64,000 nucleotides of DNA from an uncultured Desulfosarcina sp. (GCA_963674945.2 CAXXWQ010000004.1:1440001-1504000); one strand, 5' to 3'; positions 8,939-62,300 are shown, counted from the first letter of the stretch. A program made the numbers and translations. The notes: generated by a model not told the origin, from the letters alone.

Positions 8939-8951
8939 GATAATCATTATC
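8939..8951. promoter_or_regulatory. Fur-box-like operator upstream of the fur/perR-family gene
   Basis: Palindrome GATAAT-C-ATTATC, 17 bp before the ATG; TTGACT -35-like hexamer at 8908. Confidence 0.7.
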
Positions 8952-8968
8952 AAAAACGGACGAGAACC

Positions 8969-35621: not shown

Positions 35622-35760
35622 GTCTGTCCAGAAATGGTAGATCATGGTTCAGGTCAAGGCCGCAGCGACGTCGAAACCGCAGGCGTAGCAGCGCTACGTT
35701 GAGGATTTCGACAGAGTGAGAACGCCGGCATGGGTCATGAGATGCCGTTTCTGGATGGGT
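35622..35760 (+). repeat. ~140-bp nested hairpin element (MITE-like or structured RNA)
   Basis: 30-nt terminal arms pair fully on the + strand using G.U, apart from a tandem GA/AG; inner stems GTCGAAA/TTTCGAC and CGTAGC/GCTACG. Confidence 0.75.
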
Positions 35761-36728: not shown

Positions 36729-36900
36729 GTTTGGCTCCCTTCGTATAGGAACGCGAGAACTTAGGGTAAGCATGAATCGGCGGGAAGCAAAGCGATGGTC
36801 GTGGAAGTGAAGAAAATCACCTGGGAAGGCATCGCGCCTGTTCGATCACCACGAATTCATCGAAGTGATCGAACAGGGAAAAAGTGAGTTTACTATAAAT

Positions 36901-37560
36901 TCATGCGGCGGGTTGCCGATCGCCGTGCTTCTCCCACTCGTGAATGTCACCCTCTTCCACTTGTTCCCAACCGGTCACCATGGCCCTCACGTGTGCAGTA
37001 ATGCTGTGGCCGGTGGTGGTCATGTAGACATGGACGATGACGAAACACAAGATGGCGAAAGCGCCTGCCATGTGGACGATGGCGACGATTCCCAGGGAGA
37101 GGCCCGAAAGCCCCCATTCCGGCCATTGATTGTATCCCCAGTACAAAAACCCGGAGATCATTTGAACGGGGAGCAAAATGGCCGCCAGCGACAGGTAGAC
37201 CAGGCGCTGCAAAGGATTGTGCTTGGCCTCCTTGCGTTTGGGGACCGGATGGCTTTCACCCCTGAAGATCCCCCAGCTGTAGTAACGAACCACCTGGAAC
37301 ATCTTCTTTGTGGTGGGAATGTACTGCTTCCACTCTCCGGTGGTGAACAACCAGAAGACGAAGAAGGCGAAGGCGATCAACCAGGTAATTCCCACGAAGT
37401 TATGGATTTCCACCGCGTCCTCGAATCCCAAAAAGGAATAGACGCCATGCACCTCGAAGCCGGTGATCAGCAAAGTGAAGATCAGCGCCATCTGCAACCA
37501 GTGCCAGAAACGCTCATACCGCGTGTACAGGTACATGTTGATCATGTTTTTCATGGACAT
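36901..37560 (-). CDS. Cytochrome b (Ni/Fe-hydrogenase/PhsC-type membrane anchor)
   Basis: ERFWHWLQ, KHNPLQRL and His-containing TM helices (IVHMAG, VHVYM). Confidence 0.92.
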   Translation of the reverse strand: MSMKNMINMYLYTRYERFWHWLQMALIFTLLITGFEVHGVYSFLGFEDAVEIHNFVGITWLIAFAFFVFWLFTTGEWKQYIPTTKKMFQVVRYYSWGIFRGESHPVPKRKEAKHNPLQRLVYLSLAAILLPVQMISGFLYWGYNQWPEWGLSGLSLGIVAIVHMAGAFAILCFVIVHVYMTTTGHSITAHVRAMVTGWEQVEEGDIHEWEKHGDRQPAA

Positions 37561-37562
37561 GG

Positions 37563-39194: not shown

Positions 39195-39241
39195 CTTCTC
39201 CCCAAATGGGCTTTTCCAAGGTAAAAGTACCATCATTCTTA

Positions 39242-39586
39242 TTATTTGCACTTGGCCGGTGTAGGCGAATCGGCTGCATGATCATGAAGGTAGGCGTAGA
39301 TATCACTGATGTCCTCATCGGACAGCGCATCCCACTCTTTTTTGCAACCGAAATCCGCAAATTCCTTCTTCTCGAATGTACGCGTCCACTGGGCCTGGGT
39401 CTTGGCGTCAGGGCTGATGGGAGGCTTGGGAGAATCCACTTCCCCGCGTTCCATGCAGGCCTTGTAGACCTTTCGATAGGTGTATTTCCCTTTGCGTTTG
39501 TTTCCCTTTTCAAGGGCAAGGCCGGCGCTTACAGTGGAAAAGAGGAAAACCAGTGCGGTAATGACGAAAATTCCTTTTTTGCTCAT
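39242..39586 (-). CDS. Small secreted cytochrome c-like protein lacking CxxCH
   Basis: Signal peptide; GNKRKGKY, ISPDAKTQAQW and YLHDHAADSP; YKACM at the expected heme site. Confidence 0.7.
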   Translation of the reverse strand: MSKKGIFVITALVFLFSTVSAGLALEKGNKRKGKYTYRKVYKACMERGEVDSPKPPISPDAKTQAQWTRTFEKKEFADFGCKKEWDALSDEDISDIYAYLHDHAADSPTPAKCK

Positions 39587-39723
39587 GATGCCTCCTAATG
39601 AATTTGAAATTTAAAATTCAAAATGAATAATGAAAATAGCATGAACCGTCATGAAATAGATGATATCGTATCATTTCCTAGATGATTCGGTACATACTAG
39701 GATTGCCAGTGTCTCATAGGACA

Positions 39724-39897
39724 CTACCACCAACAGATCACTTTGTCATTTTCGAAAATCTTGTCCACCAGCGCATGCCAATCCACCGGTTTTTCGTAAA
39801 GCATGACGACCGTCGCCGTGTTTTCCAGGTTGATGACATTGGTAAGCTTGGCAATGGTTTCATCCGGCTTTGATTTTAAAATATGAAGCACTCTCAT
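39724..39897 (-). CDS. Small DsrH/TusB-like protein
   Basis: MRVLHILK...VDWHALVDKIFENDKVICWW. Confidence 0.6.
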   Translation of the reverse strand: MRVLHILKSKPDETIAKLTNVINLENTATVVMLYEKPVDWHALVDKIFENDKVICWW

Positions 39898-39932
39898 ATG
39901 CAAAAACATCCTTATACCTGTTGCCGCCGAAT

Positions 39933-40235
39933 TTAGAACGGGATGACAATATCCGCACTTTGGATCCTCGTGGCTGCCTGGGTCAGCGTCACATGGGTGA
40001 AGCCGTATTTTTCCGCGTTTTCCGAGTTGTTGGAAAATCTAAGCCCGCCCAACTCGTCCAAAAATGCCATGTTGTCCCGGTACGCTTCGTCCATGTTTTC
40101 GATCTCGTGATGGAGCACGAACATCTGCACGGCCATCCCTTCCAGCAGCAATCCGATGCTGATCCGCAGCCCTTCGTACTGCTGCTGCGGGTCCCTGATA
40201 ATGACAGCGGCCTGTTTCACACCTGTTACGTTCAT
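39933..40235 (-). CDS. DsrE/DsrF-like protein
   Basis: AVIIRD...YEGLRISIGL and C-terminal ADIVIPF. Confidence 0.6.
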   Translation of the reverse strand: MNVTGVKQAAVIIRDPQQQYEGLRISIGLLLEGMAVQMFVLHHEIENMDEAYRDNMAFLDELGGLRFSNNSENAEKYGFTHVTLTQAATRIQSADIVIPF

Positions 40236-40281
40236 GGGTGCCCCGGACGATCTTCCCATCGTATTTCTCTTTCGACGGCGG

Positions 40282-41991
40282 TTAGTAACGGAACGTCAGG
40301 CTTACATAGGCGTCCCACACCTCGTCGATAACCGGATTCAAGGCGTTGAGAGAATTGATCTCGTCGATTTTCTGCGGCTTTCCCAAGGGATTCCCGCTTC
40401 CTGTATATTCGTAATCGTAGTACCGGGCACCGATGGTGGCGAAAAAGTTGTCGTTGATAATAGGCTGATGCCAGTATCCTTCGTAGACGTGGCCACGCAC
40501 GGCCAGCTTGCTGCCGACCAGCGAATCCTCTGCCCCGGTGAAATTGAACCAATAGCGGGAGCCGTAGTTGTATTCCACACCGAAGCGGGCGTCCCAGGGC
40601 ATGGGAAATACGGCGCCGACGTGTATCATGTATCCATCGCGGTCCTCCAGCTCACCATTGGAGTTGAGCAGGCCCATGCCCATGATTTTGTAGTAGGGAT
40701 TTTCGGATGTCTGCGAAGGGCTGGTATGGCTCCAGGAGCCGGACAAAAACAGGTCGATGTCCTTCTCGAACCGTTCGTACAGGTTGGTGCGCAAGAGCAG
40801 GCTGAGGGCGTCCCAGTCACCGAGGTTGGTGGAAGGTTGCAGCCGGGTAACGAATCCTCCGGAGTTTTGATTGAAGGTGTATGTACCGTCGGCATTTTCG
40901 GTGATGATGAACGGCATGACGGTAAGTCCGGTGAATCCGTCTGTAATGTCCCACGCATGGGCATAGTTGAGAACCGCACTGGTACTTTCATTGTCGAAGA
41001 TCGTTGCGATGAATCCGCCAAAATGCACGTCGTCCACATACGATTGCTGGCTACCCAGAGAATAGGTGTTTCCCCAATCGCTTTCGAATCCCTGACCATA
41101 ACACAATTTAAGGGATGCGCCCGGAATGCCGGTCACATATTCCAGGCCCATGCTGTAAGACGCACCGTCGAACTGCCAGTTGATGACCGAGGCAAGGGGA
41201 GAGCCTCCTTCAAGACTGTAATTCATGTACTCCATGGGAGGGCCTTCGGTGCCCGGCCGGCGTCCCACGGAAAATGTGGTGGGGACCCGCCCCCAGTCCT
41301 TTTTGTAAAAAAAGGAGGCCCGTTCCAGTCGTATGGTATCACCATGGGGCAGGTTTGACGTGTTCCCGTCCAAAGCGATATCGCCCAGCGTTCCCTGGTT
41401 GAACTTCACACCGCTGCTGTCACCGAACACCTTGTATGCGGCCAGACGACCGTCGAAACTGAGCTGATCGTTGACCTTGGCCGTCATTCGCAGTCGAAAT
41501 TTGTTGGTCAGGATGATATCGTTGTCGGCGTCGAATTTCTCGGTCGGGGGAATCATGCCGAATTGATCCATGAGCGCCATGGCCTGCTGTATCTGCGGCA
41601 ACGTGGCGTTGTTGAGTCCCATGGGATAATCCACGAAGAATCCTCCCACCAGGGAACTGGGCGCTACCTGGATGTCCTTATAATGAAGTGAGTCGCCCCT
41701 GGAGCGAAATTCGATGCCGAAGGCAACCTTGTCGGTGGCCGTGTGCAGTTCTGCTTTGTTGAGGCGATTGTCCAGTTCTTCGATCTCCTCGTCCTTCTCC
41801 TGATTCTTGCTCTCCAATGCCTCGAGTTGTTTCTTGACCTCGGACATCTCTTCATTCATCTGCTCCAACTTCTGCTTGAGCATCTGGACCTCCTCTTCTG
41901 CCCAGGCGATTGCAGGTGCCATGGCCCCCCAAAGAAAAACGAGGCAGAGCAGGATGACAATGATGTTATTGTTGCGCGCTGGATTGTTCAT
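40282..41991 (-). CDS. DUF3373-like exported/outer-membrane protein
   Basis: Signal peptide, coiled coil, then a beta-rich region with GRRPGTEGPP, EYNYGSRYWFNF and KLAVRG; C-terminal LTFRY. Confidence 0.75.
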   Translation of the reverse strand: MNNPARNNNIIVILLCLVFLWGAMAPAIAWAEEEVQMLKQKLEQMNEEMSEVKKQLEALESKNQEKDEEIEELDNRLNKAELHTATDKVAFGIEFRSRGDSLHYKDIQVAPSSLVGGFFVDYPMGLNNATLPQIQQAMALMDQFGMIPPTEKFDADNDIILTNKFRLRMTAKVNDQLSFDGRLAAYKVFGDSSGVKFNQGTLGDIALDGNTSNLPHGDTIRLERASFFYKKDWGRVPTTFSVGRRPGTEGPPMEYMNYSLEGGSPLASVINWQFDGASYSMGLEYVTGIPGASLKLCYGQGFESDWGNTYSLGSQQSYVDDVHFGGFIATIFDNESTSAVLNYAHAWDITDGFTGLTVMPFIITENADGTYTFNQNSGGFVTRLQPSTNLGDWDALSLLLRTNLYERFEKDIDLFLSGSWSHTSPSQTSENPYYKIMGMGLLNSNGELEDRDGYMIHVGAVFPMPWDARFGVEYNYGSRYWFNFTGAEDSLVGSKLAVRGHVYEGYWHQPIINDNFFATIGARYYDYEYTGSGNPLGKPQKIDEINSLNALNPVIDEVWDAYVSLTFRY

Positions 41992-42053
41992 CTGTTCTCC
42001 TTGTAAACGTTGTTCATGAAAAGTTGATGGATTTCGCCTGAACAATCGTATCG

Positions 42054-42068
42054 GCAACTGTCGTGCCA
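42054..42068 (-). promoter_or_regulatory. sigma54 -24/-12 promoter of the DUF3373-OTR cluster
   Basis: Minus strand reads TGGCACG-ACAG-TTGC, matching the consensus, about 60 bp upstream of the ATG. Confidence 0.85.
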
Positions 42069-42096
42069 TGTTGGGCAAAACGAGTCGAAATTTATT

Positions 42097-42193
42097 TAAC
42101 TTGTTGTTAATTTAATAAAAATTAAAACTGTAGACGATCTTGTAAAGTATTAAAGACAAGCTTATGTTAACACTTGTTAAGTTAACATGTTAA
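42097..42193. promoter_or_regulatory. Candidate IHF site and enhancer (UAS) region
   Basis: TAACAACAAGTTA on the minus strand (42097-42109) is close to WATCAANNNNTTR; clustered TGTTAA/TTAACA half-sites at 42165-42193. Confidence 0.55.
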
Positions 42194-42273
42194 TGCTATA
42201 TTTTAACAGAATTTACAATCACCGTTCACCAGCTGGCATGGAAATTGGCCACGGATTTAATACGGAAGGTGCC

Positions 42274-43641
42274 ATGAACATCGCAAAATATTGGAAAACC
42301 ATCGTCGATACACTTCAAGACGGCCTGATGGTCGTTGATCCAAAAGGAGATATCATCGCCGCCAATCAAGCGGCAGAGAAGATCACCGGTTATTCCCAAG
42401 ACGAATTAATCGGAAAATCTTGTCGCATATTGAATTGTACGGGATGCAAAATCATCGGGAAAGGTACTGGAACGAATTGGTGTCGTCTCTTTCAAAAAGG
42501 GGGCATCCGGGAGAAGAAATGCCTGATCACCAAAAAAGATCGTCATTCGGTGCACATCGTCAAAAGTGCCTCTGTTTTACGCGATGAAGCGGGAGAGATC
42601 ATCGGCGCCGTGGAAACCCTTACCGACATTACCGAGAAGATCCGGCAGCAGCAGGAGATCAGCCAGTTGCGCAAGACGTTTTACCTGGATGAGGGGTACC
42701 ACGGAATTCTTGGCAAAACGCCCGTAATGCTCAACCTGTTCGAAATGATCGAAAATGTTTCCCAGTCGGACACCCCGGTGATGATTCAAGGTGAGAGTGG
42801 AACCGGAAAAGAACTGGTTGCACGGGCCATTCACCAGGCCAGCAATCGCAGGGAGAAGCCGTACGTCAAGGTAAACTGCGCGGCCTTGAATGAAAACCTG
42901 TTGGAAAGCGAATTGTTCGGACACGTAAAGGGCGCCTATACCGGTGCGGACCGCACCCGCATCGGACGGTTCGAAGCCGCCAATGAAGGGACGATTTTCC
43001 TGGACGAGGTGGGAGACATCCCCCCCGCCATCCAGATCAAGTTGTTACGGGTGCTGGAAGAACGAAAGATCGAACGGGTGGGAGACAACCGTTCCGTCCC
43101 CGTGGATGTGCGGTTGATCACTGCGACCCACAAGGATCTGGAGTCGTTGATCCAGCAGCAGCTTTTTCGGGAAGATTTGTACTTTCGCATCAACGTCTTT
43201 CCCCTGCAATGCCCTCCGTTGGCCCAACGAAAGGACGACATCCCCATCATCGCCCAGAGCTTTATCCGTCGCAATGCGGCCAGCAGCGGAAAAAACATCC
43301 TCGGCCTGACACCGGACGCGCTGGAGGCCTTGACGGATTACAATTGGCCGGGAAACGTCCGGGAATTGCGCAACACCATCGAATACGCCTTCGTCCTCTG
43401 CCAGAACGGCGGTATCGGCGTTCAACACCTGCCCCACAAGATTGTCAACGGCATGGATACGCCACAACCGGACTGCCACCTCGATCCGCAATGTGTAAAG
43501 GATCGGGAACGGTTGATCCAGGTACTTCGGCAAACCGGCGGAAACCAGTCCAAGGCGGCAGAAATGCTGGGCGTCAGTCGGGTCACCATCTGGAAACGGA
43601 TCAAAAAATTCGGAATCGATATCAAGAAAGAGGTGGGATGA
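42274..43641 (+). CDS. PAS-domain sigma54-dependent activator (bEBP, Fis HTH)
   Basis: GESGTGKE, ESELFGHVKGAYTGA, FLDEVG, WPGNVREL and the GGNQSKAAEMLGVSRVTIW HTH. Confidence 0.95.
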   Translation: MNIAKYWKTIVDTLQDGLMVVDPKGDIIAANQAAEKITGYSQDELIGKSCRILNCTGCKIIGKGTGTNWCRLFQKGGIREKKCLITKKDRHSVHIVKSASVLRDEAGEIIGAVETLTDITEKIRQQQEISQLRKTFYLDEGYHGILGKTPVMLNLFEMIENVSQSDTPVMIQGESGTGKELVARAIHQASNRREKPYVKVNCAALNENLLESELFGHVKGAYTGADRTRIGRFEAANEGTIFLDEVGDIPPAIQIKLLRVLEERKIERVGDNRSVPVDVRLITATHKDLESLIQQQLFREDLYFRINVFPLQCPPLAQRKDDIPIIAQSFIRRNAASSGKNILGLTPDALEALTDYNWPGNVRELRNTIEYAFVLCQNGGIGVQHLPHKIVNGMDTPQPDCHLDPQCVKDRERLIQVLRQTGGNQSKAAEMLGVSRVTIWKRIKKFGIDIKKEVG

Positions 43642-46203: not shown

Positions 46204-47145
46204 TTACAATCTTACCGCCAGGCGACGTGCCCGACGACGGCCCCACAGCCAGAGGCGTAGGATATGCGTAAAGGCCACAGCCGTGATGATCCGCGGCACC
46301 CACAGCCAGAAAGGATGTATCCCAAATGGCAAAAACAGACACGGATCCTCGATCATGGCGTGATTGATGCCTATGGAAACGTGAAGGGGGGCCAGAATTT
46401 CCGGTGATAAGGGGCGTTCACTGACCTCTGCTACGATTACCGCACCACCGTATGCAATGCCGAACATCGCAGCCGTCATCCACAAAAGCGCCACCCTTCG
46501 ATCCAGACCCAGCAAAGACAAGGCGGGTTCGACGGCCCGAATTATACGGTCGATGATATGGTACTGCCGAACAAGTTCCATGAAGATCATCACCGCCATG
46601 ATGATGGCCAAAATCTTGAGGCCCAGCCATGCCATTTGGATGGCCCAATCCCGGATTGCCGGGAAAAATAGAACGGGGGAAGCGTTTGAAACGCTCGTTG
46701 TCATCTCAGTGGCCGTTTCCGGTCCGAATACCCACGACAAAAACCAGACCGTTACTACGGCCGCAAAGAGCCGAACAAGAGTGGCCAACAATGCGGAGAA
46801 ACCGGATCGGTTCTGAATGATGCCCTCTTGAATCAAATTGTGGGCGATAAGCAGGAAAATTGCCATCAACGTCATCTGAGCGACGGTGAATGGCAGAACA
46901 GACATCGCTGCAATTGCACCGTAAATTCCTGTCAGAAGGCCGACGATGAGTGGAAAGGCGGCCGTCGCAGGCAGGTGAAGCAAACCCATGAGCGGCTCCA
47001 GGATACCATCCAATTTGTTCAGCCAACCCGAATATTCAAACAGGAACGTCACGAAGGAGACGGGAAGAATGATCTTGACCATCCAGACGAATCCCAGCCA
47101 TCCTTTGACCGCGCCAAGTCGAACTGTCGTTGTTATGGAATCCAT
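46204..47145 (-). CDS. Nucleoside-recognition (Gate) domain membrane protein
   Basis: Multiple TM segments; LEPLMGLLHLP, GIAYGGAVI and NHAMIEDP. Confidence 0.7.
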   Translation of the reverse strand: MDSITTTVRLGAVKGWLGFVWMVKIILPVSFVTFLFEYSGWLNKLDGILEPLMGLLHLPATAAFPLIVGLLTGIYGAIAAMSVLPFTVAQMTLMAIFLLIAHNLIQEGIIQNRSGFSALLATLVRLFAAVVTVWFLSWVFGPETATEMTTSVSNASPVLFFPAIRDWAIQMAWLGLKILAIIMAVMIFMELVRQYHIIDRIIRAVEPALSLLGLDRRVALLWMTAAMFGIAYGGAVIVAEVSERPLSPEILAPLHVSIGINHAMIEDPCLFLPFGIHPFWLWVPRIITAVAFTHILRLWLWGRRRARRLAVRL

Positions 47146-47152
47146 GAACCGG

Positions 47153-47629
47153 TCACGGCATCAGATAAAATCCCAATATGGGGTCATCCATCTCATTGGG
47201 AAGGAAAGCGGCGCCCACGTATAAACCGCTGATATTACGAATGATCACCTTCTTTTTCATGGGGCTTCGCTTTTGATTGTCCAGGTTGAATTCGACCAAT
47301 AGTTTCGCACCAATGGGAAAATCTCGGGGTGCGTTCAATTTTAATTTCAGGCCAGTGGTGGAGATGTCCACCACCTTGACCAAGCCGGAATCAGCCGGAC
47401 CATTCTCCCCCATGAGGGTAAATCGCCCTGGCAGGTCGGCACTTTTTCTGTATTGCCTGCGCTTTTCCAAACGACACCGAAACGTGTTACCGCAGGTGCA
47501 GGTGCATTTGACCGTAATCTTCTGATTGGTGTTGGCGTATTTGCTGACATCTGTAATCTTGGCTTTCCCGCATTTGGGACAACGGAAGGTAGCGGTGTTG
47601 TTACTGGAAATAAATACGGTCTGATCCAT
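47153..47629 (-). CDS. Zinc-ribbon plus PilZ-domain protein
   Basis: CPKC and CTC; RRQYRK (RxxxR) and DISTTG (DxSxxG). Confidence 0.88.
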   Translation of the reverse strand: MDQTVFISSNNTATFRCPKCGKAKITDVSKYANTNQKITVKCTCTCGNTFRCRLEKRRQYRKSADLPGRFTLMGENGPADSGLVKVVDISTTGLKLKLNAPRDFPIGAKLLVEFNLDNQKRSPMKKKVIIRNISGLYVGAAFLPNEMDDPILGFYLMP

Positions 47630-47653: not shown

Positions 47654-48118
47654 TTAAAATTCATCCGCTATGGATTGATGGCCGCGTATCTTGATGATTT
47701 CTGGTTTGTAGTTGGTATCTTTCGAAAGACGACGGCCCGCAGCGCGGATAATGACAAATGCAAAACCGAAAAACGCGAAGCCCAAAAGGGCCGATAAACC
47801 CGATGGATCCATTCCTTTGTCCATGGCAATCCGCTGACCGAGGATCGCACCGGCAATCATCGCCAGGATGGGAAAAACATAGAGGAGGAAGGTGACCTTG
47901 AGAAGATAGGCGGTTTTGACATTCAAGACGATTCGATCACCCACGCGGGCATTGACCGAATTGATCGCCTCCACCTCCATCTCCTTGCTTTCTCCATCGC
48001 CATGGCAGGCATCTCTGGATGAACAGGATGCACAGGCGGAAGATCGCGTGGTCTTCACCCAGGCGGTTCCGTTTCCGGAAGCGCCCATCTTAAATACGAT
48101 TCCCTCTTCGATGGCCAT
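47654..48118 (-). CDS. RseC/MucC (SoxR-reducing system) family protein
   Basis: RSSACASC...C, ARVGDRI and LLYVFP followed by two TM helices. Confidence 0.9.
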   Translation of the reverse strand: MAIEEGIVFKMGASGNGTAWVKTTRSSACASCSSRDACHGDGESKEMEVEAINSVNARVGDRIVLNVKTAYLLKVTFLLYVFPILAMIAGAILGQRIAMDKGMDPSGLSALLGFAFFGFAFVIIRAAGRRLSKDTNYKPEIIKIRGHQSIADEF

Positions 48119-48204
48119 AAGCGGTATTCTCGGTGAATGGTACGTTCGTTGACCTATGAAAATCTACGTATCGTTGCTATCAATAAACACTTTTTTATCG
48201 AACA

Positions 48205-50262
48205 TCAACCGTTAACCGCTTTTTGAATATGGACCGGCGATTTTTCAACTGCCGCATCCTTGTAACAGATGAGACCACAATTGAGGCAGCGGGCAGCCTC
48301 TTCCTGGGCCATTTTCGTATCGAACCCCTTTTCCAACTCTTTCAACTGGGCAAGATCGCGACTCTCTGCAAGGGGCATGATTCGTCGCTGGACCGGTGTC
48401 ACCTCCTCCACCTCGTCCACATCTTGGATGATCATCTTTGGGTTCAACACGTTTTCCGGTAAGTCGACGGGAATATCATAGAGCAATTTGTGAATGGTGG
48501 CTGCCGCCCGTCGGCCAGCGCCAATCGCTTTGATGGCACCGCTGAAATCGGTCAGGGATTCACCCCTTGCGAACAGCCCCATCTGATTGGCCAGATCCGG
48601 TCTCTTGTAAGGTGATACGGCCGTCCATTCTCCCGTCCCGTCCGCCGTTTCATCCTCTTCATCGCGCGCGGATCGAGTGAAGATCAGTTCAGGAAAACGG
48701 CCCGCCGAAAAGACCAGGGTCTCGGCCGGCAATTGGAGGGCCTGATTCGTGGTCGCATCGATCACCTCCATACCCGTAAGGCAGTCTCCTTCCCCGAAGA
48801 GGCGGGTAACACCGCCGTATATCACTTGGGCACCGGCTTCTTTCAAAGCTGTCTGGGTTTGCGGCGTCAAGGCTTCACGAAAAACGAAAGTGACGGCATC
48901 GGCGCCGGCGCTGCGCGCCTTGGTCAGCGCTTCGCCGGCCAATCCCTCTCCGCCGACGATGACTGTTTGGCCCTGGCATGTCACGGTCTCGTGTCCGTTA
49001 CTGCCCGACCGGAGCAGGTCCAGCAGCAGGTAACCGCCGGGAATGGGACTTTCGGCCATCTTCTCGCCCCCACGGGCCAGACGGCTGTCCCATCCCCCCG
49101 AGGCGAGGAAAACGGCTTCGTAGCCCTCGTCCAGAAGGCCTGCCACGGTGATATCACGACCGAGCATCTGGCCGGTCTTGGCGGTAACCCCCATATCCAG
49201 AATGCCATCGATATCCCACTTGAGGATCTCGTCGGGAAGACGATACTTGGCAATGGCCGTATTGAGCAGTCCGCCCAGGCGGTCCGTACCTTCGTATACC
49301 GTGGTGTCGTGCCCCAACCGGGCCATGAAAAAAGAGGTGGAAAGTCCCTGTACACCGCCACCGATCACGGCGACGCGCCGGCCGGTTTCCGGTGCCTTGA
49401 ATGGTTGAATGCGCTCGCTTTGGGTACGTTCATAATCGGCGACAAACCGTTTCAAAAAGTTGATGGCTACGGGTTCGTCCACGTATTTCCGGCGACAATC
49501 GTCTTCGCAGGGCCGGGGACAGATTCGTCCGATCACGGTTGGAAAGGGATTTCGCTCCTTGATGGTCTGAACGGATCCGTGGTAATCGCCTTCGACGATC
49601 TGCTCGATGTAACGGCTGATATTGATCCCGGCCGGGCATGCACGCTGGCAGGGAGTGGTACAATCTTCCGTCGTGTACTCTTTCAAGATTCTACGGGTAA
49701 CGGAAGAGAGGGTGATGATGTGCTTGGGGCAAACCCGTTCACAGGTACCACAACCGGTACACTTGACCTCGTCCACCACCGGCAAGCCTTTCGGCCCCAT
49801 GGTAATTGCGTCGAAGGGGCACGCGGCGGCACAAGTCCCCAGCCCGAGACATCCGATATTGCAGACCTTCATTCCACCGGATAGAATCGCGGCCGCACGG
49901 CAGTCGTTCAGGCCGTCATACTTGTACTTCACATCGGCGTCGGCCACGCCGTAGGTGCAACCGGGCAGGGCGATGTCCGGTTCCTTGGCCTCGACACTGA
50001 CGCCGAGAATTTCGGCAATGGCCACGGCCACCTCTTCACCGGCTGCAACACATGAATTCGGTGCCGCCTTTCCCGCCACGATGGCTTCTGCATTGGCACT
50101 GCACCCGGGCATACCGCAGCCGCCACAGTTGGCACCGGGCAGGACGTCGTCGACGGCGACGATTTTCGGATCGACGTATACGTAAAAAACTTTGGAGGCC
50201 AGCGCCAGGCCGATTCCCACTACGAGTCCAAGTCCGCCCATGAGTACGATGGCTATGGTCAT
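48205..50262 (-). CDS. rnfB: RnfB-like polyferredoxin fused to a GltD/NfnB-like flavoprotein domain
   Basis: N-terminal TM; LPGANCGGCG.PGC; two ferredoxin motifs; PCQRACP...GRICPRPCE; VIGGGVQG; EAARCLNCG. Confidence 0.85.
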   Translation of the reverse strand: MTIAIVLMGGLGLVVGIGLALASKVFYVYVDPKIVAVDDVLPGANCGGCGMPGCSANAEAIVAGKAAPNSCVAAGEEVAVAIAEILGVSVEAKEPDIALPGCTYGVADADVKYKYDGLNDCRAAAILSGGMKVCNIGCLGLGTCAAACPFDAITMGPKGLPVVDEVKCTGCGTCERVCPKHIITLSSVTRRILKEYTTEDCTTPCQRACPAGINISRYIEQIVEGDYHGSVQTIKERNPFPTVIGRICPRPCEDDCRRKYVDEPVAINFLKRFVADYERTQSERIQPFKAPETGRRVAVIGGGVQGLSTSFFMARLGHDTTVYEGTDRLGGLLNTAIAKYRLPDEILKWDIDGILDMGVTAKTGQMLGRDITVAGLLDEGYEAVFLASGGWDSRLARGGEKMAESPIPGGYLLLDLLRSGSNGHETVTCQGQTVIVGGEGLAGEALTKARSAGADAVTFVFREALTPQTQTALKEAGAQVIYGGVTRLFGEGDCLTGMEVIDATTNQALQLPAETLVFSAGRFPELIFTRSARDEEDETADGTGEWTAVSPYKRPDLANQMGLFARGESLTDFSGAIKAIGAGRRAAATIHKLLYDIPVDLPENVLNPKMIIQDVDEVEEVTPVQRRIMPLAESRDLAQLKELEKGFDTKMAQEEAARCLNCGLICYKDAAVEKSPVHIQKAVNG

Positions 50263-50361
50263 ATGCACACCCCTGTCATTCTCTTTCACAGTTAGCCCAC
50301 CGGCGTTCAATAACAATCGAACGCGCCGAACCCAGGGCATTGTTGTCAATCGAAAGTGTGA

Positions 50362-52209
50362 TCACAATATGGCATCGAACCTGCATTTATCGTAGCAGGT
50401 CAAACACTTGATGCACTTTTCCTTGTCGATGCGGGCGACTTCCTTCTTCTTCCATTCGATGGCGTCCGCCGGGCAGGCCCTGAAACACATGCCGCAACGG
50501 GTGCAGGCTTCCGGGTCCACTTCGAATTTCAAGAGCGCCACACAACGTTTTGCCGGGCAACGGCGCTCGTAGATATGGGCCTCGAACTCGTCCCTGAAAT
50601 AGCGCAACGTGGAGAGAACCGGGTTGGGGCCGGTCTGCCCCAGCCCGCAAAGGGCCGTCTCCTTGATCGTGTGAGACAATTCGATCAGGGTGTCGATATC
50701 CCCCGGCTCACCTTTTCCTTCACAGATTTTCTCCAGGATCTGCAACTGACGGCGCGTTCCCTCCCGGCAGGGGGTACACTTGCCGCAGGACTCATCCTGA
50801 ATGAACTCCATGAAAAACCGGGCCATGTCCACCATGCAGGTATTCTCGTCCATGACGATAGCGCCGCCGGACCCCATGATGGCGCCCACCTTGGCAATCG
50901 CCTCGTAGTCCACCGGCGTGTCCAGATGCGATTCGGGAATACAGCCGCCCGAAGGACCGCCCAATTGCACCGCCTTGAATTTTCGCTTCTTGGGGATGCC
51001 GCCGCCGATGTCGAAGATGATGGTCCGCAGTGTCGTTCCCATGGGTACTTCCACCAGTCCGATGTTGTTCACGTCACCGGACAGGGCAAACACCTTGGTG
51101 CCCTTGCTCGTTTCGGTGCCGACACTGGCGTACCATTCACCGCCGTTCAGTATGATCTGCGGGACGTTGGCCAGCGTCTCCACATTGTTCAGGATGGTGG
51201 GTTTTTCCCAAAGCCCCTTGTGCGCCGGAAAAGGAGGTCGCGGTCGCGGCATCCCCCGTTTCCCTTCGATGGATCGCATCAACGCGGTCTCCTCGCCGCA
51301 TACGAAGGCGCCGGCGCCCTGGTAGATCTCGATATCGAAAGAAAAATCCGACCCCAGTATGTTGTCGCCCAACAGACCATAGGCCTTGGCCTGCTCGATG
51401 GCGATACCCAGCCGTTTGATGGCAAGCGGGTATTCGGTTCGGGCATAGATATACCCCTTGCGGGAATCGATGGCCTTGGCCGCGATGATCATGCCCTCGA
51501 GCACTGCGTGGGGGTCCGCTTCCAGTATGCTGCGGTCCATGAAGGCCCCCGGGTCTCCCTCGTCGGCGTTGCAAAGCACATACTTGACGTCGCCTTTGCT
51601 CTGACTGGCAAAATCCCACTTCACACCGGTGGGGAATCCTGCCCCGCCCCGTCCCCGCATGCCGGATGTCTTCATCTCGTCGATGATCTGTTGGGGCGTC
51701 ATTTCGAACAATGCCTTGGCCGCACCGGCATATCCGTCCCGGCCGATGTATTCCTCGATGACCTCGGGGTCGATCAACCCCTTGTTGCGAAGGGCCCTTG
51801 GCATTTGATTGGCGAAAAAGGGAATCTCGGTCTGGGCGGCGATCTTCGCCTTGGTGACCGGATCCTTGTAGAGCAGTCGTTCCACCGGTTTGCCGTTGAC
51901 CAGATGAGATTCCACCAGTTCCGACATGTCTTCGACGGTGAGTTTCTGATAGAAAATGTCTCCGGGATGAACCACCAGCAAAGGCCCCAATGCGCAAAAC
52001 CCGTTGCAACCGGTTTCGATCACCTGTACCTTTTCACCAAGCCCCTTCTCATCGATGGCGGCGATCAAGGCATCCTTGACACGGATCGACCCCGTGGCGT
52101 GGCAACCGGTACCGCCGCAGATCAAAAGATAGGTTTTCTCCCTGAACGCCAGGCGCGCCGCCTGGGATTCTCGAATGTTCTCCAACTCCGCCGTCGTCAG
52201 TCTCGCCAT
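50362..52209 (-). CDS. nuoF: NuoF/HydB-like NAD(H)/FMN-binding subunit
   Basis: N-terminal 2Fe-2S (CGGTGC...GCNGFC); RGRGGAGFPTG; NADEGDPGAFMD; ESCGKCTPCREG; two C-terminal 4Fe-4S motifs. Confidence 0.93.
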   Translation of the reverse strand: MARLTTAELENIRESQAARLAFREKTYLLICGGTGCHATGSIRVKDALIAAIDEKGLGEKVQVIETGCNGFCALGPLLVVHPGDIFYQKLTVEDMSELVESHLVNGKPVERLLYKDPVTKAKIAAQTEIPFFANQMPRALRNKGLIDPEVIEEYIGRDGYAGAAKALFEMTPQQIIDEMKTSGMRGRGGAGFPTGVKWDFASQSKGDVKYVLCNADEGDPGAFMDRSILEADPHAVLEGMIIAAKAIDSRKGYIYARTEYPLAIKRLGIAIEQAKAYGLLGDNILGSDFSFDIEIYQGAGAFVCGEETALMRSIEGKRGMPRPRPPFPAHKGLWEKPTILNNVETLANVPQIILNGGEWYASVGTETSKGTKVFALSGDVNNIGLVEVPMGTTLRTIIFDIGGGIPKKRKFKAVQLGGPSGGCIPESHLDTPVDYEAIAKVGAIMGSGGAIVMDENTCMVDMARFFMEFIQDESCGKCTPCREGTRRQLQILEKICEGKGEPGDIDTLIELSHTIKETALCGLGQTGPNPVLSTLRYFRDEFEAHIYERRCPAKRCVALLKFEVDPEACTRCGMCFRACPADAIEWKKKEVARIDKEKCIKCLTCYDKCRFDAIL

Positions 52210-52227
52210 ACCCCCTCCGCCAGATTA

Positions 52228-52581
52228 CTACCAGGAACCGTCCAATCCCCGGATGCCATTCATGTAGAGTCGCCCGCAAGCGACAAATAACGAGTATTCG
52301 GTAACCATGAGGGGAATGTCGTTGGATTTTGCCATCTCCACAAATTGTTCGGGTGGCGTCTTTCCCCTGACGATAACGATGGCGCCCACGCCGACGATCT
52401 TTGCCGTTCGGATAACATGATCCGTGGTTACGCCGGTAAGCAGCACACATTCATTGGCCACGGCAGACAAGACATCGTCCATCAGATCCGCCGCACCCCC
52501 GGCGACGATGACCTTGTCCATCTGATCTTCCCCGTAGAGCACATCCCCTTTGAGAATATCTTTGATTTCTGAAATTTTCAT
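52228..52581 (-). CDS. DRTGG-domain protein
   Basis: ADLMDDVL, VLLTG and IVIVRGK.P motifs. Confidence 0.85.
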   Translation of the reverse strand: MKISEIKDILKGDVLYGEDQMDKVIVAGGAADLMDDVLSAVANECVLLTGVTTDHVIRTAKIVGVGAIVIVRGKTPPEQFVEMAKSNDIPLMVTEYSLFVACGRLYMNGIRGLDGSW

Positions 52582-52602
52582 TGTCGTAGGACCATATTCA
52601 GT

Positions 52603-53097
52603 TTAGGTATACTTTTCGAGGAGTTCGATCACCTTATCCGAACTCACGTCCCCGTGTGTATCCTGATCGACCACCATCACCGGTGCCAGTCCGCATGCAC
52701 CCAGGCATCGAACGCCTTCCAGCGAAAACCGGCGATCCTCGGTGGTTCCCCCCTCTTCCAGATCATATTCATTTTCGATTCGACTCAAGGCCTCTTTGAT
52801 GCCTTTGACATAGCAGGCCGTGCCCAGGCACACTTTAATCGTGTGACGTCCCTTGGGAACCATGGAGAACAGAGAATAGAAGGAGGCCACCCCAAAGACC
52901 GTGCTGGAGGGAAGGTTCAGGCCTCGGCTGATATAATCCAAAAGCATCACGGGCAAATATCCGGTAATATCCTGACATTCGCGAAGCACCGTGATGACGG
53001 CACCCGACACCGCCTTGTTCCTGTCGATGACCGCATCGATCCTGGACCACATCGCTTCGTCGATATCCGGATGGTGAGGATGGAAATCTGGTTTCAT
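52603..53097 (-). CDS. nuoE: NuoE/HydC-like 2Fe-2S subunit
   Basis: GVASFYSLF, VCLGTACYVKG and RCLGACGLAPV. Confidence 0.93.
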   Translation of the reverse strand: MKPDFHPHHPDIDEAMWSRIDAVIDRNKAVSGAVITVLRECQDITGYLPVMLLDYISRGLNLPSSTVFGVASFYSLFSMVPKGRHTIKVCLGTACYVKGIKEALSRIENEYDLEEGGTTEDRRFSLEGVRCLGACGLAPVMVVDQDTHGDVSSDKVIELLEKYT

Positions 53098-57518: not shown

Positions 57519-59189
57519 GTAGAGTAGGGAGGGATTACCCTCCCCCTCGTCAAACCGGACAGGCGGATTTCCCGCATCCGGCTTTCCCTTGAACTTCACC
57601 AACAAGCACACGCAGAGCATCAGCTAATGTCGCTACTACAGATATATCAGCCCCAGCTGTTTCAGGTGCCGGTAATAGCTTCTCCCTTTCGGAGGACGAA
57701 AAGGACGCTGACTGCGACGACGTAAATGACCGATAAAGCGATGCAGAACATACCAGTTCATTTCCCGAAACGCCTTGCGAGGATAGCCGAATTGAAAGTA
57801 GTTGGCCCATCCGCGCTGTTGGCGATTCACCGCCTCGATCAGCTGCGTCACAGGAACACAACTGTGTTTGCGGCTAATCGTTTCTCGAAGCCTGTCCCGA
57901 TGCGCCTGCATCGCCTTGCGCGATGGCGTTACGTTCAGATAGAAGACCTTCTCGAACCAATGAAGGTAAATATTCGCCAAAAGCGGCGATATCACACCGC
58001 CTTGAGGCGTACCCTTCCCTTTCCGCGAGACTTTCTTGCCGCCGTGGCCATCATCCTCCTCGATCGGTGCCGACAGCCACATCTGAATCAGCTTCAACAC
58101 CGAGCGGTCGACGATCCGCATGCGAACACACTTCATCAGCTTGTCCTGCGGAATCGCGTCAAAGTAACCTTTCAGGTCGGCATCAAGCACCGACGTCAAT
58201 CCCTGTTTTCGGTTCGATGATCAGCAGCGCGGCCGTCTGGATGACACGGTCCCGTATCGTCGGGATGCCCAAAGGGCGCTGACGTCCGTCGGGTTTGGGT
58301 ATATATACCCGCCGTACTGCCATGGGGCGGTACTGCTTGCGCCTGAGGTCTTCATGGATTTCTTCCACGAAACCCTCAGACCCGCCCTCACTGGCTTCAA
58401 TCTGTTCGAATGTAACGCCGTCCACACCGCCCTTGCCTCCGTTGGCTTTGGCGATCCGGTAGGCGCTGGTCAATACGTCTCGCCGATAAATCCGATCATA
58501 GAGTGCATAAAATCGGAACTTCGGCTCCTGCTTCGCTTTCAGGTAGAGCTTCTGTCTCAAAGAAGAGAGTTTCTCCGGAAGCCGGATCGTCTTTACGTGG
58601 GCGGACTTCCACACGTCCACGTCAATAGACTCCCACAGTTCCAGTTGTTCCGTAATGGGTCTGTTAACCAAGCGGCACTCCTCTTGTCTGACTCTGCATG
58701 TTCAAGGCAAGGCCCCTTGGCTCCACGGGCATTACCCCGCTTCTCGGCTACTATGGGCCTCTCCGACTCCCGACATGGCCGTTTGCCGGTTATTGATTCC
58801 CCACAAACGTTGGTGACACGATCGCCGCCGTGCCGGGTCTCCCAGGTTCCTCGATGCGACTGTCCAAGCGCGCCCTCCCCTATCACCCCGGGGTGCCCTG
58901 CGGCTTCTCTCGCTCGTTGCTTCACCGCAGGTGGCAGGCTTCGCCATCTTTGGCAGGTTGGCCACACCCAATTGCGTAACGAGGCCGAAGCGGGTTCATT
59001 TTCATTAGGGCTCACTTGTTCGCAGTCCGGGAAGGCTATTCCCTTCGCCACCCGCCATAGGGCGGTGACCGATCCGCTTCCCATGCTCGGTTACCCTGAC
59101 ATGGGGGACCGCTGCTACACGATGAACGAGCAATTATCATGGCTGACTCCTTTCAGTCGGCAAGTCACACCAGGCTTATCCTGGCGCTC
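57519..59189 (-). mobile_element. Group II intron (1671 nt as present)
   Basis: 5' end GAGCG; domain V AGCCGGATGCGGGAAATCCGCCTGTCCGGTT; short domain VI ending CCTACTCTAC; EBS1 CAAAGA in a GCC/GGC hairpin. Confidence 0.92.
57636..58671 (-). pseudogene. ltrA: Group II intron reverse transcriptase/maturase with two internal deletions
   Basis: [52 protein letters not shown] and maturase RGWANYF are present; SYGFRP and YADD segments are missing; frameshift near 58208. Confidence 0.9.
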
Positions 59190-59339: not shown

Positions 59340-62300
59340 TTATTCGCGCCCCGATGTTCCGGCCATGACGGACTTTCCCACCTCCCTGCCGATAACGGTG
59401 TCAAATGCCAACCGCACCGGATCGGGAAAGGGCGTGGCCACAGGCCGGTTCTGACCGTCCCGCGTCACCCAGACGGCCCGGTGAAAGCCGTAGGCGATCT
59501 TCACCGACGATCCGTCCGGTTCCAGGCGGAAGTAATCCACGTGAAAGGTGACGCTGCAACTTCTCAGCTCCTTGACGGCCAGGGTGAGCTTGATCCGATC
59601 GAAGGGCATGGCCTCGCGCAGGTGGTCCACGCGGCTCTCCAGGGCCAGCAGCTCTCCCTTCTCACCGATTCCGCCGAAGTAGTCGGGAATCAGATCGTAG
59701 AAGAATCGGTCCCGGATCTGCCCCTGCCAGTCGTAGTAATTGGCATAGTAGATATTGCCCACCAGGTTGGCGTGGGCCAGGGTGGTGTCGAAGACCTGTT
59801 CCCTCACGATGGCGCGAATCACCGGTCCCGGGGGGGCCAGATAGAGGATGGGATCATCGTCCGATTCAAGCAGGTGTGCCATGGATTCCTCCATGGGCGC
59901 GGGGATATCGGGCGCATCGAAACGCGGGCACATGTCCTCGATGAAATGCCCGTAGTAGGTTGGATAAGGGGCGACCCTGGCCTTTCCCGGACCCAGTATC
60001 TCCACCCAGGTGGTCTGAAGACGGCAAAAGGCGAGACGTTTGCGGCCACCATCCTTTCCCATTTTTCGAAAATCATAGGAAAGCGTCATGGTGGAATTCT
60101 CGGGCCCGCTGTTGTCACTCACCCACATGAGAATTTCCACCTGGTCGCTGGTGGCACCCTCCCCTACTATCTTCAGGTGGCCATAGTTGGTCACCCCGCC
60201 CCATCGGCCGCTGGCGAACTGATCCGACATCTGGGCCAGGACCGGCCAGGCAGAGGCTTCCCGGGTGTTACCCATCCATTTGATGAAGTTGGAAAAGTAG
60301 ATGGTCCGGCTCAAATTGGCGCTGGGCTGGAAGGTGACCGGCAGCCGCTGGACGAACACCAGCTGCCCCTGGGGTCCACCCTCGATCATCTCGAAGGGGC
60401 GGACCTCGTACAAGGGTTCGTATCCCGGATAGTCGGCGGTCAAAAGGTGCGCCGGCACCCGGGGCGCCGCCTTCTCGGCGGTCGTGGTAGTAACGGCCAG
60501 AATCTGCGGCCTGCCCCAGGTCAGACGAATGGCCAGGGTGAGAATCTGTAGGGCGGAACCTTCGGCGTCGGTGACTTCAAAAAGAACGGCCGTCCCTTTT
60601 TTTTTCACGATCCGAAGGGTATCTGAAGAGACGACACCGATCTTGCCCAAGGTTTCGGTGGCGGCCCAGACGCGGGTACCGGCGGTATCCAGATCTTCTA
60701 TGGATTCGGCGAGTTCATCCAGAAGCCGGGCCCGATCCGGTCCCAGCAGACCTATCCACGCGTCTTTCTCCCTCGAGGTAATAGCGGCCAGGTCACACCC
60801 CATTGGACCGGGACCGACCGAACAGAGACAGGTCCGGTCCTCATGGGTCAACGACAGGTCCAGCACGCCACCGGCGATATTGGCGACGGCCGGTTTACCC
60901 GTCTCTTCCCAGTGGACGGCCAATGAAGCGGATGGGACATCGTACTTGTCGGCGGCCTCCTGCAGCGCCTTTTCCAGCAGGGGCATCTCGAGATCCCGTC
61001 GCCGGTCCCTGGTCTGGTCGTGAATTCCCACGATGGTGGCCAGATCCACGAAAGGTGTTGTCACGGCAAGATCGTTTCCGGCCGCATCCAGCGCCTGCCG
61101 AACCATCTGCCGGTCCCGCTCCTCTGGTCGGATCAGATCGGCCACCGTCGGGTAGTGATCGTGGTGCTTGAGAATTCGAAGACGATAGCCGGAGAGTTCG
61201 GCCCGGATCGATCCGTCCTCACCAACTGCCGTCACTTTGTAAATCAGGTCCCGGTCATCCTGCTCCATCAGTTCAACGCGCACGTTTGCCGATTTACCGC
61301 CGTCGAAGAATTCGGGGAAAAGATCCATGCAATCGATGGATACGGGAAGGCTGGTATCCTGGGGTACCAAGAGGGCCGCGCTCTGCAGCATCGTATCGGT
61401 GAAGAAGGGATCACCCAGGCACAACCGGACCGAAGGGTGTTTCCCGAAGGCCTGGCCCACCAGTCGATCCTTTGGAGTCAGGCGGCTGGTGAGCAGTGCC
61501 GTTCCGGTCCGTTCACCGGATTGTTGGATTTGCCAGACCCTTTCGATGCCCTGGAACCGGGGACCTTGGAACAAGAGCGTGGGACGGTACAGATCCGTCT
61601 CGGGGACCAGCGGCAAGGGTTCATCGGGCAGTTCCATGACGGCTGCCGGCGCCGTTTCCCCTGCCTCGAAGGCAAAGGAGGCGGAGAAAAAGTCGGAAGC
61701 AACACCGGTATCCTGCTTGACGATACCGGCGTGAATCGTGGTCCGCCCATCGCCATCTGCCTCGGATATGATGGCATGGATGGTGATGTCGGCTCCCGAT
61801 TCGGCATCCACGGTGATGGGCCGGAGAAGACGAATATCCCGGATCTGCATCCGCACCGGCTTCTTTTGTTCGGTAAGGTAAAACACCGCTTCGGCCATGG
61901 CCTCCAGGCCGAATACCGTCGGGAAGAGATATGACCCTTGAAAATGGTGATCCTTGAGATAAAGATCGCTTTCGAGGGATAGATGGGCGGAAAAAACCGC
62001 CTCCACCCCCGGCGTCAGATGAATAAGCCGTTCCAGAAACCGCCAAGCCCGGGGCGGGTCGGGAATTGTCTGGCGCCACGTGTCCAGTCCCCCCAGACGG
62101 GCGGTCACCACCACCTGGCGATGGCCCGGGTCGTGGGTGAAGAGTCTAAGAAATCGGTCCACACCCATATCGGTGGGAATGGCGTCGATGCCCCTGTCCC
62201 GAAGCAGGGCCACGCTTCCCATGCGTGCCCCCATCCCTTCGTCCCGCCAGATGCTGTAGGCGACATTGAGGATCTGGGTTTGGGGATGGACGGCATGAAA

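Follow-up and report, generated by a model that had tools for sequence, protein, structure and literature searches.

Here we describe an operon that may connect an electron-bifurcating NuoE/NuoF pair to an Rnf-type ion pump. It is found in a 64,000-nucleotide stretch of DNA from an uncultured Desulfosarcina sp. (GCA_963674945.2 CAXXWQ010000004.1:1440001-1504000), called the window below, where five closely spaced genes run on the minus strand at 47654-53097 in the order nuoE, DRTGG, nuoF, rnfB::gltD (the fusion, hereafter FUS) and rseC. Comparative genomics, on which this finding rests, suggests that the operon encodes a bifurcating (Bfu) module without BfuA that is wired through FUS, an alternative RnfB, to an Rnf2-type core encoded elsewhere, a reading to which we give an even chance. 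In marine sediments, members of the Desulfobacterales account for a large share of carbon oxidation. The operon had been proposed in an earlier reading of the window (the original prediction), and all five genes with every domain named there were recovered when Pfam and NCBIfam profiles were run on the window proteins:

52603-53097, minus strand: nuoE, 164 amino acids, [2Fe-2S] subunit of the BfuC/HydC type (PF01257, E 4.9e-45)
52228-52581, minus strand: DRTGG-domain protein, 117 amino acids (PF07085, E 3.5e-07)
50362-52209, minus strand: nuoF, 615 amino acids, flavin mononucleotide (FMN)/NADH subunit of the BfuB/HydB type (Pfam Complex1_51K and NADH_4Fe-4S)
48205-50262, minus strand: FUS, the rnfB::gltD fusion, 685 amino acids (PF04060 FeS, Fer4 dicluster, Fer4_20, Pyr_redox_2)
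47654-48118, minus strand: rseC, 154 amino acids, two-helix membrane protein (PF04246, E 1.6e-34)

The gaps between these genes are 21, 18, 99 and 86 nt in the order given. A simple scan found no terminator-like site in the gap between nuoF and FUS, and a promoter and terminator scan of the operon returned nothing exceeding the shuffled expectation. The absence of HydA, FdhA, NuoG and rnfCDGEA that had been claimed holds for window positions 34-64 kb, where Pfam detected none of these genes; FUS and its neighbours likewise gave zero Pfam matches to Fer2_4, NADH-G_4Fe-4S_3 or molybdopterin families. The DRTGG protein is possibly a nucleotide-sensing accessory.

To classify NuoE and NuoF we compared them with solved structures. 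The top eight PDB matches of NuoE are all bifurcating Bfu subunits (7t2r_C, 8a6t_C, 7p5h_C, 7q4v_C, 9bov_C, 9n5u_C, 9mqx_C and 8oh5_A), the best of them being HydC, NfnC and StnA, as for a BfuC with its [2Fe-2S] cluster. The closest solved relatives of NuoF are 7t2r_B (E 1.7e-254), 7q4v_B (3.9e-247) and StnB 8oh5_B (2.1e-220), with 8a6t_B and NfnB 9bov_B also among its top structure matches; the alignments to the solved bifurcating HydB, StnB and NfnB are full-length, and NuoF of complex I is a far weaker match (about 1e-120). Pfam places an N-terminal 2Fe-2S thioredoxin-like match at residues 25-100 of NuoF and a C-terminal 2x[4Fe-4S] domain at residues 562-614, and the protein also has an N3-type [4Fe-4S] and a 3Cys+1His site. 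The motifs GDPGAFMD, CMVD and HIYERRCPAKRC are present in the translation. Residues C458, H545, C551 and C556, together with all cluster cysteines, are invariant across 38 aligned NuoF sequences, and these four residues align with conserved residues of the solved bifurcating HydB 7t2r_B and 7q4v_B, so that they probably form the extra 3Cys+1His metal site of BfuB. In the available text on HydB this site is described as a Zn2+ hinge and was modelled as Zn or [2Fe-2S] (PMC9499530), and StnB likewise carries zinc (PMC10482914). The translation, Pfam and the 38-sequence alignment bear out the motifs that the original prediction had listed for NuoF (N-terminal 2Fe-2S, GDPGAFMD, Cys/His site, two C-terminal 4Fe-4S clusters), and its assignment of both subunits to the bifurcating type agrees with their nearest solved relatives, bifurcating HydB/HydC, StnB/StnA and NfnB/NfnC. 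We therefore class the window NuoE and NuoF as Bfu/HydBC-type subunits with predicted bifurcating activity.

The start codon of FUS is most likely the ATG at 50262 (685 amino acids) and not the TTG at 50349 (714 amino acids), because a paralogue in the same genome aligns from exactly that methionine and because an AGGGG lies 8-12 nt upstream. The protein can be divided as follows (all segments on the minus strand; FAD, flavin adenine dinucleotide):

49888-50262, minus strand: residues 1-125, RnfB membrane helix and membrane-proximal [4Fe-4S] (C46, C49, C54, C71; PF04060, TIGR01944)
49666-49887, minus strand: residues 126-199, RnfB ferredoxin-like 2x[4Fe-4S] domain (Fer4 families)
49078-49665, minus strand: residues 200-395, GltD/NfnB-like 2x[4Fe-4S] and first (FAD) Rossmann motif (Fer4_20, E 1.1e-24)
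48658-49077, minus strand: residues 396-535, former NAD(P)H domain, folded in the model, signature motifs lost
48205-48657, minus strand: residues 536-685, second FAD segment, linker, C-terminal Cys motif and stop codon

The first 190-200 residues cover the whole core of solved RnfB (9eri_B and 7zc6_B; E 3e-51 to 5e-53), and the remainder matches the GltD insert of NfnA and StnC in sequence and fold (9bov_A, 9n5u_A, 8oh5_C); FUS thus joins an RnfB helix and Fe-S modules to a GltD-like flavoprotein in a chain of about 700 residues. Across 45 sequences, all Fe-S cysteines, which include C134, C138, C144, C148, C168, C171, C174 and C178 and those of the GltD-like region (C205, C209, C248, C252, C256), the retained first FAD motif GGGxxG with E324 and R341, and the C-terminal motif E655-x3-C659-x2-C662-x3-C666 are all invariant. 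This last motif aligns with 'RCLECGC', the end of the GltD insert in StnC and NfnA, and probably ligates a cluster. Within the clade of orphan fusions described below, mean identity to the window FUS is 82% for residues 1-125, 85% for the ferredoxin-like domain, 80% for the GltD Fe-S region and 44% for the former NADPH domain; against the paralogue in the Rnf2 operon of the same genome it is 53% for residues 1-125 and 15% for the former NADPH domain. The AlphaFold model of FUS (mean predicted local distance difference test score, pLDDT, 76; predicted template modelling score 0.73) has a helix at residues 2-25, is mostly above 85 at residues 200-395, and folds the former NADPH domain confidently, with a beta-alpha-beta unit at 432-461 of high pLDDT. 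In all, FUS appears to be a genuine RnfB of which the RnfB modules are the best-conserved parts. A pseudogene or an assembly artefact was rejected on the open frame, the invariant cysteines and the presence of orthologues in 109 of 151 genomes.

A separate observation concerns one relative (here and below, L marks fetched DNA loci, the first set of which comprised 80, and G marks survey genomes). At L030:7629-7631 an in-frame TGA takes the very position of the first Cys in the RnfB cluster motif GAN-C-GGCG; the degenerate FUS is otherwise intact, and a strong hairpin (-26.3 kcal/mol for 63 nt) begins 5 nt downstream. A single TGA in FUS also occurs in G089, G015, G141, G032, G100 and G135, that of G141 within the first 125 residues. 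Such a TGA at a cluster Cys may encode a selenocysteine ligand of an Fe-S cluster.

What sets the window FUS apart is the loss of its NADPH signatures, a degeneration of the NAD(P)H half of the GltD-like part that the original prediction had not recorded. The Rnf2 paralogue shares GGGN[ST]AxD, YRRxxxEMPA and the loop GEPDASGRRRPVP with StnC and NfnA; in the window FUS the first two are replaced by VGGEGLAGE and FVFRE, and the 15-residue loop is deleted. We built a tree of 44 full-length fusions, one each from the window and the Rnf2 locus and the rest from 42 of the 80 fetched loci (set aside were the cut fusions L019, L024, L042, L044, L049, L053, L061 and L071, and 30 loci without a large fusion), by a quick search and with the root assumed to lie between the two clades obtained. 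Both clades of large RnfBs have a Shimodaira-Hasegawa-like approximate likelihood-ratio support of 100. All 19 members of the intact clade, every one linked to rnfCDGEA, carry the NADPH signatures; none of the 25 in the degenerate clade, among them the window FUS, does. Basal members of the degenerate clade are rnfCDGEA-linked (L035, L038, L040, L043; L046, L059), and the window FUS is one of 18 orphans, none of them adjoining rnf genes, that form a derived clade (support 99). The large RnfBs thus appear to split into an NAD(P)H-competent and a degenerate clade, and the NAD(P)-binding signatures of a large RnfB seem to be lost from the window FUS. We judge the pocket lost by its motifs and not by its fold, because the model still folds the former NADPH domain confidently. 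The idea that the pocket had become NAD-specific was rejected: the residues after beta-2 vary (RE, RD, RK, GK), with no consistent acidic signature.

The conservation of the nuoF-FUS pair was then assessed in 151 genomes of the order, the window's included, each at least 85% complete. With a cut of at least 54% identity for a degenerate-type FUS (the next matches fall to 43%), and an unfused NuoF of at least 69% identity as orthologue, FUS is present in 109 genomes and NuoF in 68. In 53 genomes, which carry 33 of the 78 family labels by hand count, nuoF stands directly upstream of FUS on the same strand at a distance of 22-344 nt. This was the synteny that the original prediction had proposed to survey, and the pairing proved to be kept. 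A NuoF orthologue without a degenerate FUS occurs in 7 genomes. Orthologues from named species include those of Desulfosarcina variabilis, D. ovata and D. alkanivorans. Among the 80 fetched loci, nuoF-FUS is repeated in 6, and nuoE precedes it where the contig reaches. The DRTGG gene stands between nuoE and nuoF in L019, L021 and L022 and directly before FUS in L024 and L031, and is absent between nuoE and nuoF in G061. An rseC follows FUS in L020-L023, L026, L030, L031 and G061. Outside the order, 13 of about 195 genomes of the phylum have a 44-53%-identical fusion, one of them with a NuoF::GltD gene 5.4 kb downstream of it. Fusions of this NuoF::GltD kind, about 1020-1075 amino acids long and with an intact-looking Pyr_redox_2 part, recur in L046:11531-14605, G002:C57, G001:C18 and G285:C30; those of L046 and G285 follow an rnf-linked degenerate FUS at a distance of a few kb.

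Genomic links between FUS and an Rnf core are found among the relatives, 28 of the 80 loci being rnf-linked. One strand of G001 carries, in this order, a DRTGG-like gene (45% identical to the window's), HATPase, HydS-like, nuoE, a small open reading frame (ORF), nuoF (71% identity), cytochrome c3, rnfCDGEA and a degenerate FUS; the small ORF has no Pfam match and is weakly like the N-terminal 2Fe-2S part of NuoF. This string looks like a HydABC-type operon with Rnf and FUS in the place of HydA. In L046 and L059, rnfCDGEA-FUS is followed by NuoG-like, NuoE and NuoF genes. As for the genes before nuoE in G001 (L107:13202-16280; DRTGG-like, HATPase_c_2, and HydS-like with Fer4, Fe_hyd_lg_C and PF04060), this cassette is the regulatory set known from HydABC operons, here without the hydrogenase catalytic subunit.

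We also took a census of the RnfB N-terminal module in 15 genomes, in which canonical RnfBs at 39-43% identity were detected at E 1e-19 to 1e-23. A degenerate FUS is the only RnfB module in six of them (G002, G061, G141, G080, G083 and G153), which are 85-100% complete where a value is given and each have rnfA elsewhere; for G141, G080, G083 and G153 the count comes from the census alone, and loss of a gene at a contig end after rnfA is possible there and would tell against our reading. In the DNA of G002 we found rseC-cytochrome c-rnfCDGEA-yceG with no rnfB, and in that of G061 two separate contigs, one with nuoE-nuoF-FUS-rseC and the other with rnfC-D-G-A but no rnfB. G075 and G127 are possible additional candidates for an rnfB-less rnf operon, the contig of G075 ending 365 nt after rnfA. 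In the available text on the Desulfotignum phosphitoxidans genome, a cluster of cytochrome c and rnfCDGEA is listed without rnfB (PMC4046663). In G054 (L129:7884-8395), all that is left of an intact-type rnfB behind rnfA is a 92-amino-acid ORF for the N-terminus and, in a different frame, a C-terminal piece that ends RCLNCCRLC, and nuoF-FUS elsewhere in this genome is whole; these remnants point either to a genuine deletion of Rnf2's head or to a mistake in the assembly. Finally, rnfA scores above the family cut-off in 104 of the 109 genomes with a degenerate FUS, the other five being assemblies of 130-740 contigs. The rnf locus of G061 (L126:5455-9336) continues after rnfC-D-G-A with a 198-amino-acid ORF without a Pfam match and has neither rnfE nor rnfB.

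The window's own genome (7.08 Mb, 4 contigs) has three RnfB-type genes. Rnf1 is a canonical rnfCDGEAB operon whose RnfC has Complex1_51K and whose RnfB has 316 amino acids. Rnf2 is a cytochrome c3-rnfCDGEA-large-rnfB operon with a fusion of 691 amino acids, and its RnfC lacks Complex1_51K, SLBB and RnfC_N. The window FUS is 40% identical to this large RnfB, and all Fe-S cysteines are common to both. The 7.08-Mb genome gives no RseC match other than the rseC of the operon, which scores 119 bits where the PF04246 cut-off is 24.4; it has two membrane helices and presents the N-terminal CxxCx5C motif described for RseC (PMC11729352) as CASCSSRDAC. An rseC opens the rnf operons of the relatives L061, L063 and G002, and RseC is reported to work with Rsx/Rnf in E. 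coli and Clostridium ljungdahlii (for the latter, in the available text of PMC12174285). The suggestion of the original prediction that the module docks on an Rnf complex encoded elsewhere is thus strengthened in part: same-clade fusions serve as the rnfB of complete rnf operons, once with nuoE and nuoF in the string, FUS is the sole RnfB in several relatives, and the host's only rseC is here. The vacancy it had looked for is not there, however, since Rnf1 has its 316-amino-acid RnfB and Rnf2 its 691-amino-acid large RnfB.

If the module is indeed wired to an Rnf2-type core, NADH would react at the FMN of NuoF and ferredoxin at the C-terminal clusters of NuoF, with the Fe-S chain of FUS replacing BfuA as the third branch. 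This chain would run from the C-terminal Cys motif through the two GltD-type clusters and the ferredoxin-like pair to the membrane-proximal cluster, and would link the N3-type cluster of NuoF to the RnfA/E cluster. FUS would dock by its RnfB module on an Rnf2-type RnfA/E/D/G core with RnfC and cytochrome c3. An RnfC of the Rnf2 type is predicted to be unable to bind NADH, and the NuoEF head would supplant the large RnfB's original point of entry for NAD(P)H. Electron flow through the core would be coupled to ion translocation, with confurcation of electrons from NADH and reduced ferredoxin into the core, or bifurcation out of it. Overall, electrons would pass reversibly between NADH plus reduced ferredoxin on the one hand and the Rnf2 core, and probably cytochrome c3, on the other, with ion movement coupled to this exchange. 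The former NADPH domain would be a structural remnant and the FAD, if kept, a relay, and RseC may help to assemble or anchor the module. In the host, Rnf2 would then have two alternative heads, the module and its own operon's NAD(P)H-binding large RnfB, and because both rnf operons keep their rnfB, FUS would have to compete or alternate with the resident RnfBs. A bolder proposal, in which we have more doubt than confidence, is a Bfu-Rnf supercomplex: a bifurcating NADH-ferredoxin module bolted, via a dedicated RnfB isoform without an NADPH site, onto an ion-translocating Rnf2 core with periplasmic cytochrome c3, the Desulfobacterales swapping RnfB heads (NAD(P)H, NuoEF, perhaps FdhA) on one core. 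A single machine would then couple bifurcation or confurcation directly to a membrane ion gradient. An exchangeable NuoEF-FUS head would explain how NADH and ferredoxin enter Rnf2, would give BfuA-less type 4 Bfu enzymes a concrete partner, and would, for the first time, tie a bifurcating module to an ion pump of the Rnf type.

A number of observations weigh against wiring to an Rnf2 core. Both host rnf operons retain their own rnfB, so that no RnfB slot is visibly vacant. FUS does not need NuoEF, because 48 genomes with it lack any close NuoF orthologue, the two genes are both present but apart from each other in 8 more, and L024 and L031 show a DRTGG-FUS pair divergent from PNP (PNP<>DRTGG-FUS) without nuoEF, with rseC after FUS in L031. 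Conversely, NuoEF can have other partners, because in G005 its orthologues (69% and 73% identity for NuoE and NuoF) stand without FUS beside a rubrerythrin gene. None of the 13 genomes outside the order has nuoF directly upstream of its fusion, and, a weak point, none of 113 longer relatives (at least 1200 amino acids), which are StnC-like or HdrA-like, joins the RnfB Fe-S module to NuoF. The sister group of the orphan FUS, from Desulfobacula-, Desulfotignum- and Desulfamplus-like metagenome-assembled genomes, adjoins other genes, and at four of its loci (L028, L033, L034, L039) FUS is divergent from a selenocysteine-split FdhA with a NuoG-type N-terminus, an arrangement which hints that the same adaptor may also take a formate-dehydrogenase head. 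The host, too, has FdhA-like genes with a NuoG-type N-terminus, three in all and none with nuoEF beside it (L109, L110 and L111, at 3.24, 3.29 and 1.18 Mb of contig C4); two of the three are split by an in-frame stop, as for selenocysteine, and one adjoins HdrA/MvhD-like genes. In the sister group, FUS lies at about 7000-9100 of the locus (4034-6100 in L033), and a DHH/DHHA2 gene follows shortly downstream on the opposite strand in L028, L033 and L034.

The two resident rnfB genes of the host favour another explanation, unlikely in our view, in which NuoE, NuoF, FUS and perhaps RseC make up a complete Bfu enzyme of their own, tethered to the membrane by an RnfB helix that is nothing but an anchor, and have no contact with an Rnf core; the FAD site of FUS, or RseC, would handle a third substrate such as a disulfide, quinone or NADH. 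It also accommodates the move of the FUS clade out of rnf operons and the retention of the FAD motif, R341 and a well-folded former NADPH domain, and BfuA-less type 4 Bfu enzymes with an unrelated third-substrate partner have been described (PMC9304861). It leaves unaccounted for that 6 of the 15 genomes checked have, for an rnf operon lacking rnfB, no other RnfB than FUS, and that G001 encodes FUS behind rnfCDGEA. Furthermore, the membrane-proximal RnfB cluster domain, for which we know of no partner other than RnfA/E, is among the most conserved parts of FUS.

The conservation of nuoF-FUS in 53 genomes and 33 family labels, with gaps down to 22 nt, in turn speaks against the improbable case that NuoE and NuoF serve a distant BfuA-type subunit, for example one of the three host FdhA-like genes, and that FUS is a separate alternative RnfB; adjacency would then reflect co-regulation only, or else a larger FdhA-NuoEF-FUS assembly. 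The host FdhA-like genes with NuoG-type N-termini but no nuoEF beside them, the sister orphan FUS genes that adjoin such an FdhA and the NuoEF orthologues that occur without FUS would all suit this case, although one of the FdhA-like genes has HdrA/MvhD-like neighbours, which suggests another partner for it. A soluble transhydrogenase of the Stn/NfnABC kind, using NADPH, NAD+ and ferredoxin with FUS as the NADPH subunit, is very improbable, since the GltD part, closest though it is in sequence and fold to NfnA and StnC (9bov_A, 9n5u_A, 8oh5_C), has lost throughout the clade the NADPH signatures of StnC, NfnA and the Rnf2 paralogue, and since the NuoG-like domain, the only contact with StnB in Stn (PMC10482914, in the text available), is missing.

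Two further genes follow rseC co-directionally and with tight spacing, and their membership of the system is uncertain:

47153-47629, minus strand: PilZ-domain gene (Pfam), after rseC
46204-47145, minus strand: Gate-domain membrane gene (Pfam), after the PilZ gene

The order of PilZ and Gate genes is kept in L020-L022, L023 has PilZ alone, and in L030 PilZ lies 1.8 kb further on. Other genes at 34-64 kb of the window include purine-salvage, SurA-like, sigma-54 activator and multihaem cytochrome genes. On the minus strand at 35694-42078, 5-12 kb downstream of the operon, lie a SelO-like gene (35694-36773), a multihaem cytochrome c (Cytochrome_cB, 37563-39251) and a DUF3373 gene (40282-42078), from which a PAS/sigma-54 activator (42187-43641, plus strand) is divergent. 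A fragment of a group II intron reverse transcriptase/maturase (57636-58199, minus strand; 187 amino acids, RVT_1 and GIIM) adjoins two unassigned ORFs and a large polyketide synthase-like gene (59340-63986).

Compared with known systems, an RnfB-GltD fusion as such is not new: it is in print, in the text available, as the 'large RnfB' of Tol2-type Rnf2 (PMC5109826, PMC11887813). The Tol2-type Rnf of Desulfobacula toluolica, called Rnf2 in Desulfococcus multivorans, has an RnfB of about 700 amino acids with NAD-binding sites and an RnfC without an NADH domain (Dörries et al., citing Wöhlbrand 2013; PMC5109826), and a 2025 study describes Rnf2 as part of the core genome and constitutively formed in the Desulfobacteraceae (PMC11887813). 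Its large RnfB has the same RnfB helix, Fe-S modules, GltD-like flavoprotein and C-terminal Cys motif as FUS, but is the last gene of a (cytochrome c)-rnfCDGEA operon, whereas the window FUS lies outside any rnf operon, in a separate clade without NAD(P)H signatures, with nuoE and nuoF before it and rseC after it. Neither the clade split of the large RnfBs, nor the conserved nuoF-FUS unit, nor nuoEF beside an orphan large RnfB was found in the literature searched, a search to which the supplements of PMC9304861, which may show such a neighbourhood, did not belong; the supplement of PMC11887813, as far as available, gave no match for RnfB, NuoF or RseC. The parts are thus of known kinds (BfuBC core, large RnfB, RseC), and it is their combination that was not met in that literature.

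Like the window, StnABC of Sporomusa ovata and NfnABC of Caldicellulosiruptor and Thermococcus (8oh5, 9bov, 9n5u) combine a BfuBC-type NuoEF with a GltD/NfnB-like Fe-S flavoprotein. The window differs in having neither a NuoG-like scaffold, nor an N-terminal [2Fe-2S] domain, nor NADPH motifs, and in having a membrane-anchored RnfB module instead; of a BfuA with a NuoG-like domain, only the end motif of the GltD insert remains in FUS. The analogy with Stn drawn in the original prediction is consequently weak, as the NfnB-like part has lost its NADPH signatures and a NuoG-like domain is lacking. Also comparable are the type 4, BfuA-less Bfu enzymes, in which an unrelated partner carries the third substrate (Schut et al. 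2022, PMC9304861). These have, as in the window, a BfuBC core without a BfuA homologue in the cluster; an example is Rub-Bfu (BfuB clade 57). The neighbour is a rubrerythrin in Rub-Bfu, as for the 73%-identical NuoF of G005, and a large RnfB in the window. For many BfuBC-only clusters Schut et al. call the partner unclear, and in the main text of their paper, as available, Rnf is named only in the reference list and GltD nowhere (PMC9304861). As for canonical RnfB (Clostridium tetanomorphum 7zc6_B and 9eri_B), FUS matches it over the RnfB core, adds a GltD-like part of about 470 residues, and is encoded apart from rnfCDGEA. In the RsxABCDGE-RseC system of E. coli and the rseC-rnf genes of Clostridium ljungdahlii, finally, an RseC with a CxxCx5C motif is genetically tied to an Rnf-type subunit as it is in the window, where it follows an orphan rnfB paralogue and not the rnf core genes.

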